Assembly: GCA_963733375.1 (NCBI GenBank)
Contig: CAVTDB010000008.1
Location: 1 to 64,000 of the forward strand
Reading direction: 5' to 3'
Length of the DNA stretch: 64,000 bases
Source of the DNA: Nitrospirota bacterium
Lineage (GTDB): Bacteria; Nitrospirota; JACRHJ01
The position numbers and the translations under genes were made by a program. The notes under the pieces are model-generated. The model was not told the origin of the DNA, made no database searches, and saw only the letters and a program-made list of their open reading frames with translations. Shown here piece by piece: positions 29,469 to 35,116 of the stretch. The stretch's first letter is position 1. Each line of letters starts with the position of its first letter.

Positions 29469-30995
29469 TTGACCGGATACACAATGAACAGCATGGGCTA
29501 CCCGATTTTAAGCCTCGTCTGTTTCCTGCCGTTAATCGGGGCCGTAGTGATAATCTTCCTGGGCAAAAACGAAGCCGTGTCCAAGTGGATGGCCCTGATA
29601 ACCTCCGGGTTAACCTTCCTGGTCTCGATCCCGCTGGTCACGAACTTCGACCGGGCCACGTCCAATATGCAGTTCGTGGAGCAAAAGGGCTGGATACCGT
29701 CCTGGCACGTGAACTACATCGTCGGCGTGGACGGCATATCCGTCCTGCTGGTGCTTGCTCACCACGCTTTTGTCCGTCATCTGCGTCATATCCTCCTGGA
29801 AGGCGATAACCGTGAAGGTCAAGGAGTATATGATCGCGCTACTCCTGCTGGAGACGGGGATGGTCGGCGTCTTCATTGCGCTCGACCTCTTCCTGTTCTA
29901 TATCTTCTGGGAGGCGATGCTCATCCCGATGTTCCTCCTCATCATCATATGGGGCGGGCCCAGGAAGATGTACGCCGGTCTTAAAGTTCTTCCTGTATAC
30001 CCTGGCCGGCAGCGTGTTGATGCTTGCTCGGCATAATCGCGCTGTATTACCAGGGCGGGCACACCTTCGAGATCGTAAAGCTCATGGGCCGGCATTTCCC
30101 GCCGGTGTTCCAGTACTGGACGTTCCTGGCGTTCTTCATCGCATTCGCGATAAAGGTCCCGATGTTCCCGTTCCACACCTGGCTGCCGGACGCGCACGTC
30201 GAGGCCCCCACGGCGGGCAGCGTCATCCTTGCGGGCGTCCTCCTGAAGATGGGCACCTACGGTTTCTTGAGGTTCAACCTGCCGATGTTCCCGGACGCGA
30301 CACTGCATTTCACGCCGGCCATCCTGGTCCTGTCGGTGGTGGCGATAATCTACGGCGCGCTCGTCGCCATGATCCAGAAGGACCTGAAAAAGTTAATCGC
30401 CTACTCCTCCGTCAGCCACATGGGTTTCGTGACGCTCGGCATTTTCGCCTTCACCCGGCAGGGCATGGAGGGCGGGATACTCCAGATGCTGAACCACGGC
30501 GTCACCACCGGCGCCCTCTTCCTCTGCGTCGGGATCATCTACGAGCGCACGCATACCAGGATGATAGCCGATTTCGGCGGGCTTACCAAGAGGCTCCCCA
30601 TATACGCCGCGTTCTTCATGATATTTACCCTGTCCTCGCTCGGGCTTCCGGGGATGAACGGGTTCATCGGCGAGTTCCTGATACTGCTTGGCGCGTTCAC
30701 CACCGAGAGGATCTACGCCGTAATCGGCACCACGGGCATAATACTCGGCGCGGCCTACATGCTCTGGATGTACCAGCGCGTGATGTTCATGGAGCTTAAG
30801 CCGAAAAACGAGAAGCTTATCGACCTCTCGTGGAGGGAAGCCGTCACTCTCATACCGCTCGCGGTGTTCGTTTTCTGGATCGGCATCTTCCCCAACCCGT
30901 TCCTGGGGATAATGCACGAGACGGTAAGGCACCTGCTGGAGCAGGTTAACGGGACGCAGAACGTCGCCTCTTTTGCCGCTTTCCCGAAATTTTAG
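29469..30995 (+). CDS. nuoM: NADH-quinone oxidoreductase subunit M (frameshifted)
   Basis: [42 protein letters not shown]. Confidence 0.96.
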
Positions 30996-31007: not shown

Positions 31008-32453
31008 ATGCCGATGATCTCTACAGCCGACCTGACAGCCATCTCACCTGAGATCATCGTGGTATGCTCGGCGATGGCGGTCCTCCTTCTGGGGCTTTTC
31101 GTCAAGAAGGAGTGGCGCTTCCTGCTGGGGTACCTCTCGGTGGCCGGGGTTGTCGCCGCGGCATTCCAGAGCTGGGCCATGAGGTCTGTCGTACACAGCG
31201 CGTTCTTCGGGATGTTCGTGCTGGACGGCTACGCGACTTATTTCAAGATGGTGTTCTACATCGCGGCGTCAATCGCGCTCCTTATCTCCATAAGCTTCGT
31301 GAAGACCGAGAAGATAGAGCGGGGCGAGTATTACAGCCTCATGCTCTTCGCCACCGCCGGGATGATGGTCATGGCCTCCGGCTCCGACCTGATATCCATC
31401 TACCTGGGCATCGAGCTGATGGCGCTTTCGATATATATCCTGGCGGGTTTCATCAGGAAGTCCCTGCGCTCCAACGAAGCCGCGCTGAAGTACTTCCTGC
31501 TGGGGGCGTTCTCCTCCGGGATACTGCTCTACGGCATAGCGTTGATCTACGGCATCACCGGCACCACGAACTTAAGGGACATCGCGGCGTTCGTCCAGAC
31601 GGGGACGTTCAGCAAGCCCGCCCTCGTCCTCTCCATGATATTGTTGACGGCGGGTTTCGGCTTCAAGGTCGCGGCGGTGCCCTTCCATATGTGGACGCCG
31701 GACGTCTATGAAGGCGCGCCGACCTCCGTAACCGCTTTCATGTCCGTCGGGCCGAAGGCCGCCGCGTTCGCGGCGTTCCTCCGCGTCTTCGTCACCGCGC
31801 TGCCCGGCATACAGGCGGACTGGACGATTATCATCGCCACCCTGGCGATACTTTCCATGCTCATCGGGAACGTGGTCGCCATCTCCCAGACGAACATCAA
31901 GAGGATGCTGGCGTATTCCAGTATCGCCCATGCCGGCTACGCGCTGGTCGGCTTCGCCGCGGGCGGCAAAGAGGGCATCTCCAGCGTAATGACGTACCTG
32001 CTGATATACGCATTCATGAACCTTGGCGCGTTCGGCATGGTCGTGGCCCTCTCAAGGGGCGGGATGACCGGCGAACGCATCGAGGACTTCGCGGGCCTGG
32101 CCAAAAAGAACCGCATGGCGGCGCTTTTGATGCTGATATTCATGTTCTCGCTGGCGGGCATCCCGCCGACCGCCGGGTTCATCGGCAAGTTCAATATCTT
32201 CATGGCCGCCCTGAACTCCGGGTTCCTGTGGCTCGCGCTGATAATGGTGGCGATGAGCACGGTCTCGGCGTTCTTTTACCTGCGTGTCGTTATGGTGATG
32301 TACATGAAGGAGCCTGAGGACGAGCGCAAGGTATCCCCGAACCTCTCCATGTACACGGCGATGGCCGTCGCCGCGTACGCCGTCCTGTATATCGGGATGA
32401 ACCCTTACGGGGTCTTGAACTTCGCAGTCAAATCCGTGTCCGGGCTGATGTAG
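31008..32453 (+). CDS. nuoN: NADH-quinone oxidoreductase subunit N
   Basis: EAALKYF, FKVAAVPFHMWTPDVYEGAP, KRMLAYSSIAHAG. Confidence 0.98.
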   Translation: MPMISTADLTAISPEIIVVCSAMAVLLLGLFVKKEWRFLLGYLSVAGVVAAAFQSWAMRSVVHSAFFGMFVLDGYATYFKMVFYIAASIALLISISFVKTEKIERGEYYSLMLFATAGMMVMASGSDLISIYLGIELMALSIYILAGFIRKSLRSNEAALKYFLLGAFSSGILLYGIALIYGITGTTNLRDIAAFVQTGTFSKPALVLSMILLTAGFGFKVAAVPFHMWTPDVYEGAPTSVTAFMSVGPKAAAFAAFLRVFVTALPGIQADWTIIIATLAILSMLIGNVVAISQTNIKRMLAYSSIAHAGYALVGFAAGGKEGISSVMTYLLIYAFMNLGAFGMVVALSRGGMTGERIEDFAGLAKKNRMAALLMLIFMFSLAGIPPTAGFIGKFNIFMAALNSGFLWLALIMVAMSTVSAFFYLRVVMVMYMKEPEDERKVSPNLSMYTAMAVAAYAVLYIGMNPYGVLNFAVKSVSGLM

Positions 32454-32554
32454 GAAAACACGCCGCTCATTCCCCAGCCTTCTTTGTTCATAACCAATTT
32501 AAACTAACGGTAAAAGGCATTAAAATCAAAGGGAATTCAGACTTTCCCCAAAAC

Positions 32555-32584
32555 TTGACATAAGGGTCTCTACAGCGTTATAAT
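32555..32584 (+). promoter_or_regulatory. consensus sigma70 promoter with no downstream CDS
   Basis: TTGACA-18-TATAAT with AT-rich upstream region. Confidence 0.75.
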
Positions 32585-32590
32585 TTAATT

Positions 32591-33062
32591 AGAGCAGATG
32601 ATAGCTCGATTGATCTTTGATAAAAATTCTCTGCGGTGCAGGAATGGCGGCTTCTGCTTTTCTCTTGCAGGTTCATAAGAATGGGGGCCTCTGCACGGGG
32701 TTGATTCGCCCGTCTCTTGCCTCCTTTCGGGGCGGGTGAAGAGCTACTGGCGGGGTCCCCATAATCAATGAATAATGCATCAGAAAAGGCTATTAGCCTA
32801 AGCCTTTATCGCAGGGAATAAATAATTGGGGATAGGATCAGAGAAGGTCTATAAGGGAGGTGAATAAAGCCCTTCAAAAACATTCTATCCTCAAGGATTA
32901 ATAAAAAAGATACCGCGCTGGTTCACGCTAGTGAACGTTAAGTTACTCATCCGTAGGGCGCGTAACACCGCCTCAAAGCGTGGCAGGCCGAGCCTTTTAA
33001 GGCCTCAAAAATGACCTGTTGCTGACGGATTGGGAAAAAAGAACGTAGCGCGGTATTTTTTT
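32591..33062 (+). ncRNA. candidate large structured non-coding RNA, family unknown
   Basis: promoter, boxA-like GATCTTTGATAA, three domains each closed by 13-17 bp stems, terminal U-tract, no credible ORF. Confidence 0.6.
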
Positions 33063-33110
33063 GTGTCGGCGCAGGCGGGGCAGAGAGGGGAGGTAGGGCG
33101 TTTGATTCTG

Positions 33111-33500
33111 TTATTTTTCGAGTAGTTCCCGGAGCCATGCGGGCGGCCTGACAGGTTTTCCCTGCCTGTCGACGAATGCATGTTGCGTCATCCCTTGGGC
33201 AAGCTTTTCGTTATCCCGCAGTATCTCGTATTCAAATCCCAGCCGAACTCCCTTGCATTCTGAAACCGCGGTCCTGATTGTGAGCAGGTCGTCATATCGC
33301 GCCGATTTCAGGTACTTGCATGACGCCTCGATCACCGGGAGGTAATATCCCTCGTCTTCCAGTTCTCTGTATGGCCTGCCGAGGGAGCGTATCAGCTCCG
33401 TCCTGCCGATTTCAAAATAAGTCAGGTAGTTGCCGTAATAGACAAAACCCATCTTGTCCGTCTCGGCGTAGGTTACACGGTGCGGGAAATCGAAGCTCAT
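33111..33500 (-). CDS. YbgC/FadM-like acyl-CoA thioesterase
   Basis: RVTYAETDKMGFVYYGNYLTYFEIGR. Confidence 0.9.
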   Translation of the reverse strand: MSFDFPHRVTYAETDKMGFVYYGNYLTYFEIGRTELIRSLGRPYRELEDEGYYLPVIEASCKYLKSARYDDLLTIRTAVSECKGVRLGFEYEILRDNEKLAQGMTQHAFVDRQGKPVRPPAWLRELLEK

Positions 33501-33612
33501 CCTACGCCCCTCCCCTGAACAGATTCCATCAGCCTGCGTACCTGGGCAAGCTTTACTACACGGCATCTTATAGTGCGTTGTCGGAAGGGGTATTGGCCAG
33601 CAGGACGCGCAT

Positions 33613-34502
33613 TTACTTGTAGCCCATTTCCCTTAAAGCGCCCGGCTTCTCGCGCCAGTCCTTCTTCACTTTTACCCAGAGTTCCAGGTATATCTCGGAG
33701 CCGAGCAGCCGCTCGATATCCTTCCTCGCCGCCTGGCCTATTTTTTTAAGCATCTGTCCGTTCGCGCCGATTATGATTCCCTTGTGCGAGTCCTTTTCGA
33801 CATATATATCCGCGCGTGTATATATTTTATCGCCATGCTCCTTCATCTCTTCCACGAGGACCGCCGTCGAATACGGCACCTCGTCCTTTGTCATCCGGAA
33901 TATCTTCTCCCGGATAATCTCGGCGGCGATAAACCTCTCCGGCTGCTCCGTCATCTCGTCTTCAGGATAATATTGCGGCCCTTCAGGGAGATAATCGATT
34001 ATGGTCTTCCTAAGGTCGGGCAGGTTTTTTCCTTTAAGCGACGAGACGGGGATTATTTCCGCAAAATCATATATGGAAGAATATTTATTTATGAGCGGAA
34101 GGAGCGCGTCCTTCTGCACCAGGTCTATCTTGTTTATCACGAGGAAGACCTTCGTCCTCAGGCCCTTCAGGAATTCGATTATCTCTTTCTCGGCCTCGCC
34201 CGGATTTTTATCCGCCTCCGCCATGAACAGCACGATATCGACTTCCGAGCACGCCTCTTTCGCCACCTTCACCATATACTCGTTCAGGCGGCCTTTCGGC
34301 TTGTGCAGGCCCGGCGTGTCCAGGAATATCACCTGCGCCTCTCGGGCAGGGTGAGGATGCCTGTCACGCGGTTCCGGGTGGTCTGGGGTTTATCGGATAC
34401 GATGGAAATCTTCTCCCCGACCAGCGCGTTTAAAAGGGTGGATTTCCCTACGTTCGGTCTCCCGATAATCGACACGAACCCGGAGTAAAATGCTTTTTTC
34501 AT
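33613..34502 (-). CDS. era: GTPase Era (frameshift ~34340)
   Basis: [49 protein letters not shown]. Confidence 0.97.
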
Positions 34503-34515
34503 TTCCATCTGTTTT

Positions 34516-35116
34516 TTATTTCCATCTCTTGTATAAATTATTGTCTATTCCCAGCAGGTCCAGCGCCCGCCCGGCCAACTGGTCTATTATATCCTGAATC
34601 GTCTTTGGTTTGTTGTAAAATCCGGGCATGGCGGGGAGGATATGGACGCCCAGGCGGGCAAGTTTCAGCATGTTCTCCAGGTGTATCGCGGAAAGCGGCG
34701 TCTCGCGCGCCATTAACACCAGCGGGCGGCGCTCCTTCAGCATCACGTCCGCCGCGCGTTCGATCAAGTTATTCGCGTATCCGTTTGCGACTCCGGCAAG
34801 GGTCTTCATGGAGCACGGCGCGATTACCATCCCGGCCGTCCCGAAGGAGCCGCTCGCAATCGGCGCATACATGTCGTCTTCGGGATAGAAGCTGAGCAAA
34901 TCTCCCTTGAGCTTCAAGGCGTCCGCGATTATCTTCGCGGCGGCGTTTCCGCTCTCTGCCGGAGATATCCACGCCCGTCTCGTCTTTCATTATAGAGACG
35001 CCTTCGCGGCTGGCGGTGATTATCACTTCATGCCCCGCATCCGCAAGCCCGCGAATCACCGCAAGCCCGTACGCGCTCCCGGAAGCCCCGCTGACGGCAA
35101 CGATATATTTAGACAT
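34516..35116 (-). CDS. ubiX: flavin prenyltransferase UbiX (frameshifted)
   Basis: [34 protein letters not shown]. Confidence 0.93.

Follow-up and report, generated by a model that had tools for sequence, protein, structure and literature searches.

A large structured RNA in Nitrospirota with rRNA-style transcription signals and two conserved loops resembling the Shine-Dalgarno sequence and its 16S rRNA partner

Large, conserved, highly structured bacterial RNAs are rare, and each past class, including RNase P RNA, tmRNA, 6S RNA, OLE, ROOL and GOLLD, has revealed new biology. Some large bacterial RNAs form homo-oligomers held together by kissing loops with conserved loop sequences (PMC12286853). 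In rRNA operons, boxA elements in the leader and spacer recruit the NusB/NusE/NusA/NusG/SuhB antitermination machinery, and action of boxA and Nus factors on targets other than rRNA is established (PMC5725501). At a smaller scale, sRNAs with C-rich motifs, such as RsaE, are proposed to block formation of the translation initiation complex (PMC9266662). Here we describe an RNA gene of ~470 nt that shares individual features with several of these systems but belongs to a family that is not yet catalogued. The gene was identified in a window consisting of positions 1 to 64,000 of the forward strand of contig CAVTDB010000008.1 from the Nitrospirota bacterium assembly GCA_963733375.1 (GTDB lineage Bacteria; Nitrospirota; JACRHJ01), a genome referred to below as G000. 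A preliminary description of the sequence proposed a three-domain structured RNA of unrecognized family, without a credible ORF, behind a promoter and a boxA-like leader, and our analysis confirms this description with two corrections.

Structure, conservation and distribution of the RNA

The sequence contains a promoter, a boxA-like leader and three helix-closed domains, designated D1, D2 and D3, that end in a U-tract (Table 1). The predicted structure exceeds chance, with a minimum free energy (MFE) for the + strand of -184.6 kcal/mol compared with a mean of -144.9 kcal/mol for shuffled sequences (z -6.88, with 0 of 100 shuffles as good), while the - strand gives z -2.87. In G000, 17 of the 105 consensus pairs are G-U pairs, which fits the + orientation. 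In an alignment of 14 distinct homologues, which has 96 invariant columns, 90.2% of cells pair, compared with 41-48% when the 3' partner is slid, and 34 pairs change on both sides, compared with 11-17 when slid, with 0 of 500 shuffles reaching any of these measures. However, all of the homologues come from one narrow lineage and are not independent. A scan for additional covarying stacks that could indicate tertiary pairs gave only noise, apart from helix P2 of D3 (GUUC/GAAC), which was retained. The preliminary description assigned D1 a branched tip, but D1 folds as an unbranched rod in 13 of 14 homologues by MFE and the branched tip is not supported.

Table 1 Features of the RNA gene, with positions in the 64,000-nt window.
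Feature	Position	Strand	Details
Sigma-70 promoter	32555-32584	+	TTGACA (32555-32560), 18-nt spacer, TATAAT (32579-32584); 12 of 12 consensus positions; TTGAC and TATA.T invariant in 14 of 14 homologues; transcription start predicted from the spacing at about 32591
Small leader hairpin	32592-32607	+	Pairs 32592-32595/32604-32607, in the position of a boxB; present in the MFE fold of G000 but not conserved in sequence or shape among the homologues
boxA-like element	32612-32623	+	GATCTTTGATAA; conserved at the same place in 12 of 14 homologues (consensus TGTTCTTTGAAAA)
Domain 1 (D1)	32626-32819	+	Unbranched rod; outer helix 32626-32638/32807-32819 (13 bp, 6 of 13 pairs with changes on both sides), inner helix 32681-32699/32744-32762, apical hairpin 32706-32716/32729-32739 (4 of 11 pairs with changes on both sides)
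Invariant 19-mer of D1	32711-32729	+	CGTCTCTTGCCTCCTTTCG, invariant in 14 of 14 homologues; contains the 12-nt apical loop UUGCCUCCUUUC (32717-32728)
D1/D2 linker	32820-32825	+	A-rich; possible processing site
Domain 2 (D2)	32826-32894	+	Hairpin; outer helix 32826-32837/32883-32894 (95.8% of cells pair), inner helix 32843-32847/32871-32875
Shine-Dalgarno-like apical sequence of D2	32853-32863	+	AAGGGAGGUGA; GGAGGTGA present in 11 of 14 homologues
Domain 3 (D3)	32906-33060	+	P1 32906-32918/33048-33060; P2 32921-32924/33041-33044; P3 32946-32954/33025-33034; P4 hairpin 32956-32963/32967-32973; P5 variable arm 32980-32989/33013-33022; 97.1% of cells pair and 13 of 36 pairs change on both sides, on an alignment fitted to the model
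U-tract	33056-33062	+	T7 after P1; likely 3' end by termination or trimming; T-rich tails follow P1 in the homologues

No Rfam 15 family (4227 models) reaches its gathering score anywhere in the window, and a search of 32300-33300 by E-value gave only four eukaryotic families, at 13-17.6 bits and E 1-5.6. The element is not the genome's copy of a housekeeping RNA, as full-length copies of RNase P RNA, tmRNA, 6S RNA and SRP RNA lie on other contigs of G000 (C10, C18, C9 and C2, respectively). Among the genomes examined, RNase P RNA (12 of 12), tmRNA (8 of 12 over cut-off), 6S RNA (5 of 5) and SRP RNA (4 of 5) likewise lie elsewhere. The only 40-aa ORF, at 32617-32739, is frame-shifted or stopped in 8 of the 13 other homologues, including G002 and G001 from the same genus, and no start codon follows the Shine-Dalgarno-like loop of D2 at a usable distance in the homologues that were read. 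The gene is present in a single copy in G000, and no blastn match was found in 72,556 plasmid records or 50,697 phage records. Literature searches, including a term search of 10.64898/2026.10.21.760802, found no description of this RNA.

The RNA was found in 8 of 12 genomes of one class-level Nitrospirota lineage. A model of D1 (R2) hit 8 of 151 Nitrospirota genomes, all within this class, while two models of D3 (R1 and R3) hit 9 of 151, comprising the class and one further genome, G043, which is the only genome of its order and the only one of the 4 genomes in its class with a hit. A D3 core pattern hit 7 of 401 genomes, with the reversed control hitting 1. The four genomes of the class in which the RNA was not found by DNA search or with R1, R2 or R3 (G008-G011, from one genus) are not evidence of loss and are likely assembly gaps. 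In G009 and G010 the contigs end about 1.1 and 0.8 kb past era, as inferred from the truncated locus flanks, before the place where the RNA lies in G006 (1.8 kb), and G008 and G011 gave no era hit at 1e-30 either. A 16-mer from D1, allowing 2 mismatches, gave hits in G043 and G008-G011 that were no more frequent than those of the reversed control. In scans of public sequences with the invariant 19-mer, 7 of 8 genome records are titled as Nitrospirota or Nitrospirae MAGs, while the remaining hit, in Polyangium, shares only about 24 nt and scores 24.7 bits with R2 as a small hairpin. Of 10 metagenome contigs, 7 carry the element, one of them identical to that of G007. The other 3 (L021, L022 and L030) share only the 19-mer, which on the other strand reads as a ribosome-binding site, and were not counted as homologues.

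The genes upstream of the RNA vary, with a Proton_antipo_M (nuoN-type) gene on the same strand in G000 and M028, divergent TPR proteins in G007, G005 and M026, a NiFe-hydrogenase small subunit in M027, and an ion channel in M029. Downstream, a convergent 4HBT thioesterase was found in the 6 loci where the neighbor was tested (G000, G004, M025, M026, M028 and M029), and an era gene converges on the RNA or lies next but one in G000, G007, M025 and M027. We judged this arrangement to be inherited gene order rather than a functional link.

Transcription signals and RNA-library contigs

The preliminary description called the promoter rRNA-like, but this wording is not supported: the promoter is simply a consensus sigma-70 promoter, and it is the boxA that resembles the rRNA leader. 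The boxA matches the boxA in the organism's own 16S leader, GGTCTTTGAAAA, at 10 of 12 positions. In the homologues that have it, the element lies 20-45 nt after the -10 box within an otherwise variable leader. A single match means little, as the boxA-like 12-mer GNTCTTTGANAA occurs 11 times in G000 compared with 2 for the reversed control, and only its conservation in the leader counts. Homologues G004 and M025 lack both the boxA and the outer part of the D1 rod, so neither feature is indispensable. By analogy with rRNA operons, boxA in the leader could recruit the NusB/NusE antitermination and folding machinery, which would protect the long untranslated transcript from Rho and help it to fold. 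We consider this mode of synthesis more likely than not. It would provide an example of a boxA on a stand-alone non-coding RNA gene, a class of target that the published boxA survey did not consider in the parts consulted (PMC5725501). Transcription is inferred to end at the U-tract behind P1. However, P1 closes ~130 nt and with the U-tract does not form a canonical terminator, a scan for short terminator hairpins did not list it, and some homologues carry a second, ordinary terminator further on.

Contigs assembled from RNA libraries of two studies lie on the element, at 32645-33053 in libraries X2 and X3, which are probably one data set filed twice, and 32605-32841 in library X7. One contig bridges D1, D2 and D3 (32785-33005), one begins at 32605, and one ends at 33053 next to an adapter. 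No contig from these libraries lies on the flanking nuoN or thioesterase genes, while the DNA run X1 covered 28 of 30 bins. Contigs over D1 have word depths of about 100-700 each, summing to about 550-2000 (about 2000 in a library of 32 million letters), compared with 22.8 for the contig spanning D1-D2-D3. One contig ends after 32822, 3 nt past the closing helix of D1, and is followed by 22 untemplated A. These assembled contigs show no strand, no true ends and no reliable level, their depth sums across strains, and DNA can be present in RNA libraries. The transcript is probably cut in the linker after D1, with D1 then accumulating, but the evidence for processing amounts to hints. A related possibility, which overlaps with our preferred model rather than excluding it, is that the transcript is a precursor cut in its A-rich linkers to release D1 as the stable functional product, an anti-Shine-Dalgarno mimic that occludes ribosome-binding sites in the way that C-rich sRNA motifs do (PMC9266662), with D2-D3 a short-lived by-product or 3' stabilizer. 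We regard this possibility as doubtful: the poly-A end is a single contig in what is probably one data set, and D2 and D3 are as conserved as D1, which argues that they have a function of their own.

Apical loops and a relative of domain 3

The invariant D1 loop contains CCUCCUUUC, which is identical to the 3' end of the organism's own 16S rRNA, where the sequence reads GGATCACCTCCTTTCT. The D2 loop is a strong Shine-Dalgarno mimic (GGAGGUGA, present in 11 of 14 homologues), with GGAGG present in 13 of 14 and GGAUG in its place in G003. The D2 sequence is complementary both to the 16S tail UCACCUCCUUU and to the D1 loop, with which it can form 11 bp in most homologues, 3 of them wobble. The UGA after GGAGG pairs by Watson-Crick with UCA of the 16S tail but only by wobble with UUG of the D1 loop. 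The computed duplex of D2 with the 16S tail is stronger than its duplex with the D1 loop in 11 of 14 homologues, although the 16S query was longer, which favors it.

These observations suggest a model in which the RNA acts in trans through its two apical loops on the translation apparatus, with the D2 loop pairing with the 16S 3' tail of 30S subunits, the D1 loop pairing with Shine-Dalgarno sites of mRNAs or masking D2, and production tied to rRNA synthesis. However, both loops are invariant or nearly so, and no covariation can test any pairing partner. We are confident that the gene encodes a real, new, transcribed, structured RNA, but the proposed action on translation is speculative, and the model taken as a whole remains tentative. 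An extension of this model, which we consider unlikely, is that the RNA is an accessory to the translation apparatus made in step with rRNA, with boxA-driven synthesis coupling its level to ribosome production. The D2 loop would dock on 30S subunits while the D1 loop competes for Shine-Dalgarno sites or gates D2, making the RNA a global governor of Shine-Dalgarno-led initiation or a store of idle 30S subunits. No such RNA is known in bacteria.

Alternatively, the D1 and D2 loops could pair with each other, within one molecule or between molecules, to build a compact fold or a homo-oligomer as in ROOL, GOLLD and OLE, with the resemblance to Shine-Dalgarno and anti-Shine-Dalgarno sequences being incidental. 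The computed loop-loop duplexes range from -12.0 to -16.2 kcal/mol in 14 of 14 homologues, and both loops are apical. The length of D1 varies from about 120 to about 200 nt while D2 is constant, which fits an intermolecular contact better than a fixed intramolecular one. However, these duplexes beat mononucleotide shuffles of D2 only moderately (0 to 28 of 200 shuffles are as good), and the best duplex in G003 and M025 falls outside the apical loop. In contrast to its pairing with the D1 loop, D2 is a perfect Watson-Crick match to the 16S tail. Self-assembly also does not explain the exact 9-nt identity to the 16S end or the rRNA-operon location of the D3 relative described below, and we consider it possible but doubtful.

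The RNA could also sequester or carry a protein, such as a 16S-3'-end binder like the nearby-encoded Era GTPase, a CsrA-type GGA-loop binder, or RNA polymerase, as 6S RNA does. The stem and loop of the D1 hairpin are invariant over 19 nt, more than pairing alone needs, and the KH domain of Era probably binds the 16S 3' end. However, the Era recognition motif appears to be GAUCA, and the loop has CUUG instead, while the proximity of era is within one narrow lineage, with the genes convergent. Csr/Rsm-type sequestering sRNAs would be expected to carry many GGA-bearing hairpin loops, but only the D2 apical loop is a conserved loop of this kind, and no Csr/Rsm or 6S model matches the region. This role appears improbable.

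A relative of D3 in G043 (47.5 bits with R1, E 5.8e-10) lies inside the rRNA operon, where it fills 209 nt of the 286-nt 23S-5S spacer, 12 nt before 5S and just behind the boxA GTTCTTTGACA. This location ties the D3 module to rRNA transcription, and the link between a free-standing RNA gene and a spacer element suggests a route by which new RNAs arise from pre-rRNA, or the reverse. It also raises the possibility that the gene is a relic, in which a piece of pre-rRNA leader or spacer was copied elsewhere and is still transcribed without a function in trans, particularly as the domains resemble processing stems joined by A-rich linkers. We consider this very unlikely given the invariant columns, the compensatory changes, and the invariant consensus promoter across six genera plus metagenome relatives. 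Further, the 23S-5S spacer of G000 has no such element, and D1 and D2 were found nowhere else among the genomes searched.

Comparison with described RNAs

The family matches nothing catalogued, although orphan large bacterial RNAs as a broad kind have precedents. The RNA has unusually clear handles for experiment, with a defined promoter, a boxA, three separable domains and two loops with an obvious pairing logic toward the ribosome and mRNAs, and it appears at very high contig depth in environmental RNA libraries. As the lineage is uncultured, the RNA may also serve as a marker and as an entry point to its physiology.

Like rRNA operons, the gene has a boxA soon after a strong promoter on a long, untranslated, highly structured transcript, but Rfam finds no rRNA in the transcript, which has its own likely 3' end, and two homologues do without boxA. 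Like OLE, ROOL, GOLLD, HEARO and raiA, the RNA is several hundred nucleotides long, with a multi-domain structure supported by covariation, stretches of invariant sequence, and conserved complementary apical loops that could kiss, and it is found mostly through metagenomes. However, no Rfam model of these families matches, and this RNA is smaller, has a boxA leader and Shine-Dalgarno- and anti-Shine-Dalgarno-like loops, and is restricted to one Nitrospirota lineage. The exposed pyrimidine loop complementary to ribosome-binding sites recalls the UCCC motifs of RsaE/RoxS and the hairpins of RNAIII (PMC9266662), but here the loop is a 9-nt exact copy of the 16S end on a rod of ~190 nt, within a three-domain RNA that also carries the complementary Shine-Dalgarno-like loop. 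D1 resembles 6S RNA in being an apparently abundant rod of ~190 nt with internal loops, but its conserved part is the apical hairpin rather than a central bubble. The spacer element of G043 keeps helices P1-P5 of D3 and the core AUCCGUAGGGUGCGUAA..CCACC behind a boxA, but it lacks D1, D2, and a promoter or U-tract of its own, has a longer P5 arm, and is co-transcribed with rRNA.

Conserved structure in an intergenic region

The region lies between a 481-aa Proton_antipo_M (nuoN-type) gene and a convergent 151-aa 4HBT thioesterase gene. The preliminary description had listed a TTGACA-18-TATAAT promoter, a small hairpin, a boxA-like sequence, three helix-closed domains joined by A-rich linkers, and a terminal U-tract, and each of these is present in the sequence, with the promoter matching 12 of 12 consensus positions and the three domains (D1, D2 and D3) closed by helices of 12-13 bp. 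The + strand folds at -184.6 kcal/mol, compared with -144.9 ± 5.8 for shuffled sequences (z -6.88), while the - strand gives z -2.87. In G000, the genome under study, 17 of the 105 consensus pairs are G-U, and these pairs would be lost on the other strand. Several genes around the locus in this assembly look frame-shifted. The era GTPase gene is split into two ORFs, one with the first 43 profile positions of the GTPase domain and the other with the rest plus the KH domain, which is either a frameshift or an assembly error. A UbiX-type flavoprotein ORF that starts at Pfam profile position 61 and a second Proton_antipo_M ORF that starts at profile position 51 may be further frameshifts, which would suggest indel errors in this assembly, and homopolymer errors in the A and T runs of the RNA cannot be excluded.

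Coordinates of the element, its neighbors, and related sites in other sequences
Feature	Position	Strand	Sequence or remark
Second Proton_antipo_M ORF	30024-30995	+	
Proton_antipo_M (nuoN-type) gene	31008-32453	+	
Intergenic region	32454-33110		
Promoter	32555-32584		TTGACA-18-TATAAT
Leader hairpin	32592-32607		4 bp
boxA-like element	32612-32623		GATCTTTGATAA
D1 closing helix	32626-32638/32807-32819		
Invariant 19-mer of D1	32711-32729		CGUCUCUUGCCUCCUUUCG
D2 closing helix	32826-32837/32883-32894		
Apical sequence of D2	32853-32863		AAGGGAGGUGA
D3 closing helix (P1)	32906-32918/33048-33060		
U-tract	33056-33062		T7
4HBT thioesterase gene	33111-33566		convergent
era, both ORFs	33613-34508	-	
era, rest of GTPase domain plus KH domain	33613-34332	-	
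era, start of GTPase domain	34332-34508	-	
UbiX-type flavoprotein ORF	34516-34917	-	
16S leader of G000	L033 1038-1300		
boxA-like 12-mer, whole genome of G000	e.g. C13:79610-79621		GNTCTTTGANAA
23S-5S spacer of genome G043	L045 1489-1774 (G043:C117)	-	286 nt
Hairpin in a Polyangium record	L018 777-862	-	GC-rich

The element is single-copy in its genome. By DNA similarity it was found in 8 of the 12 species-level genomes of its order, which is also the whole family and class, with the hits covering all 6 genera. Four genomes of one genus gave no hit, but in two of them the contig appears to end before the expected place and the other two also lack an era hit, and therefore loss is not shown. 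Contigs of several MAGs break at or near the locus, with the copy in genome G005 (contig C280) cut at its 3′ end and contigs C156 of G009 and C133 of G010 stopping between era and the expected RNA, a pattern that is seen at rRNA genes. A scan of public genomes with the invariant 19-mer gave 8 records, 7 of them titled Nitrospirota or Nitrospirae MAGs, and a metagenome scan gave 10 contigs, 7 of which carry the element. Removal of duplicates left 14 distinct homologues, which were aligned without any structural guidance. On this alignment, a RIBOSUM-weighted RNAalifold structure of 105 pairs in 15 helices has 90.2% of cells paired, compared with 41-48% when the 3′ partners are slid by 1-3 columns, and 34 pairs change on both sides, compared with 11-17 when slid. 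None of 500 shuffles reaches any of the five measures. Although all of the homologues come from one narrow lineage, the slid-partner control keeps relatedness and still separates clearly. Plain RNAalifold gave 69 pairs, 21 of them with compensatory changes. For D3 alone, on a model-fitted alignment that includes the distant relative, 97.1% of cells pair and 13 of 36 pairs show changes on both sides, but that alignment leans towards the structure to which it was fitted. The preliminary description had also proposed a branched tip for D1. We found no support for this feature, with D1 folding as an unbranched rod in 13 of 14 homologues by MFE. The middle of the rod is variable.

No Rfam 15 family reaches its threshold anywhere in the window, and a permissive search lists only four eukaryotic families at E ≥ 1. 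RNase P RNA, tmRNA, 6S RNA, and SRP RNA all lie elsewhere in G000 and its relatives. The only ORF of 40 aa on the + strand is frame-shifted or stopped in 8 of the 13 other homologues, including same-genus genomes, and there is no match to the element among plasmid or phage records.

Transcription signals and presence in RNA libraries

TTGAC and TATA.T are invariant in all 14 homologues, and many also carry TG before the -10 box. The leader between the -10 box and D1 varies in length and sequence, except for a boxA-like block with consensus TGTTCTTTGAAAA, which is present in 12 of 14 homologues and is missing, together with the outer half of the D1 rod, from the homologues G004 and M025. The organism's own 16S leader carries GGTCTTTGAAAA about 100 nt before the 16S start, with the 16S gene preceded by what appear by reading to be three tandem TTGACA-type promoter-like sites, and the 16S leader of G004 has the same boxA. 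The boxA of the RNA matches this sequence at 10 of 12 positions. However, the 12-mer GNTCTTTGANAA occurs 11 times in G000, against 2 for the reversed control, and therefore the argument rests on positional conservation rather than on a single match. One site away from the rRNA operon has the exact rRNA-leader form GGTCTTTGAAAA, and there may be other Nus-regulated loci. BoxA and Nus factors are known to act beyond rRNA, although the published survey did not consider non-coding RNAs (PMC5725501). Nus binding to this leader is inferred.

Part of the stretch is found in twenty sequencing runs, ten of them recorded as RNA, and we aligned contigs from four of them. In two small metatranscriptome runs of 32 million letters each, which have identical figures and are probably one data set filed twice, contigs lie on 32645-33053. 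Those over D1 have word depths of about 100-700 each, summing to about 550-2000, while a 223-nt contig at depth 22.8 spans 32785-33005 and so bridges D1, D2, and D3. Loose ends in these runs are an adapter before 32646, an adapter after 33053, and 22 untemplated A after 32822, which is 3 nt past the D1 closing helix. A peat metatranscriptome from another study has a 253-nt contig on 32605-32841. Contigs show presence in RNA libraries but not strand, true ends, or levels, and we take them as moderate support for transcription and as a hint that D1 is released and accumulates. A precursor whose only active product is D1 is one alternative explanation for the element, which we rank after action on the translation apparatus and a self-assembling architecture.

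Apical loops and a relative of domain 3

Two features were not noted in the preliminary description. The first concerns the loops. The 19-mer of D1 is invariant in 14 of 14 homologues, and its 12-nt apical loop contains CCUCCUUUC, which is identical to the end of the organism's 16S rRNA, reading GGAUCACCUCCUUUCU. In the apical part of D2, GGAGG is present in 13 of 14 homologues and GGAGGUGA in 11 of 14. The two loops can form 11 bp with each other, at -12.0 to -16.2 kcal/mol, with between 0 and 28 of 200 D2 shuffles doing as well. A self-assembling architecture built on a D1-D2 kissing contact is the first rival to an action on translation, with ROOL, GOLLD, and OLE as precedents (PMC12286853), and the variable length of D1 argues for an intermolecular contact. 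The conserved UGA of D2 pairs by Watson-Crick with UCA of the real 16S tail but only by wobble with UUG of the D1 loop, and the computed duplex with the 16S tail is stronger in 11 of 14 homologues, although the 16S query was longer, which favors it. Because both loops hardly vary, covariation cannot decide the partner. A protein decoy is a lower-ranked possibility: Era is encoded nearby, but the loop lacks GAUCA, the likely recognition motif of Era. The hairpin in the Polyangium record, whose loop carries the same UUGCCUCCUUU sequence, scores 24.7 bits with the D1 model and is probably chance or an RBS-sequestering hairpin.

The second feature is a relative of D3 inside an rRNA operon. The D3 model found one hit outside the class, in genome G043, the only genome of its order, at 47.5 bits and E 5.8e-10. 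The match keeps helices P1-P5 and the core AUCCGUAGGGUGCGUAA..CCACC, a pattern that occurs in only 7 of 401 Nitrospirota genomes searched, comprising 6 of the class plus G043. Rfam places the 23S 3′ end and the 5S gene on either side of the match. The structured element fills 209 of the 286 spacer nucleotides, ends 12 nt before 5S, and is preceded by the boxA-like GTTCTTTGACA. The 23S-5S spacer of G000 is about 100 nt and has nothing similar, and D1 and D2 were found nowhere outside the class. A functionless spacer relic is the lowest-ranked of the alternatives, and the conservation of the element argues against it.

Inferred mode of action and relation to known RNAs

The element is a conserved, structured, single-copy gene with its own promoter that is present in RNA libraries. 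How the RNA works is inferred. In the model that we consider most likely, the boxA would load Nus factors, so that RNA polymerase resists Rho on this untranslated transcript and the RNA folds co-transcriptionally, as for rRNA. The 3′ end would form at the P1 helix plus U-tract, which is not a canonical terminator, with several homologues having a second, ordinary one downstream. Cleavage in the A-rich linker would release D1, and the RNA would act through its two loops. We rank action on the translation apparatus first, with D2 pairing with the 16S tail and D1 serving as an anti-SD copy that binds mRNA ribosome-binding sites or masks D2. This ranking, for a function that remains unproven, is based on the exact 9-nt identity with the 16S end, the Watson-Crick fit of D2 to the true tail, and the tie of both the boxA and the D3 relative to rRNA synthesis.

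No catalogued family matches the RNA and literature searches found no description of it, and we consider it a new RNA class with testable, ribosome-pointing features, confined to an uncultured lineage. As far as our searches show, the combination of a boxA leader, an anti-SD copy, an SD mimic, and an rRNA-operon relative is without precedent, while the kind of RNA to which it belongs, an orphan large bacterial RNA, does have precedents.
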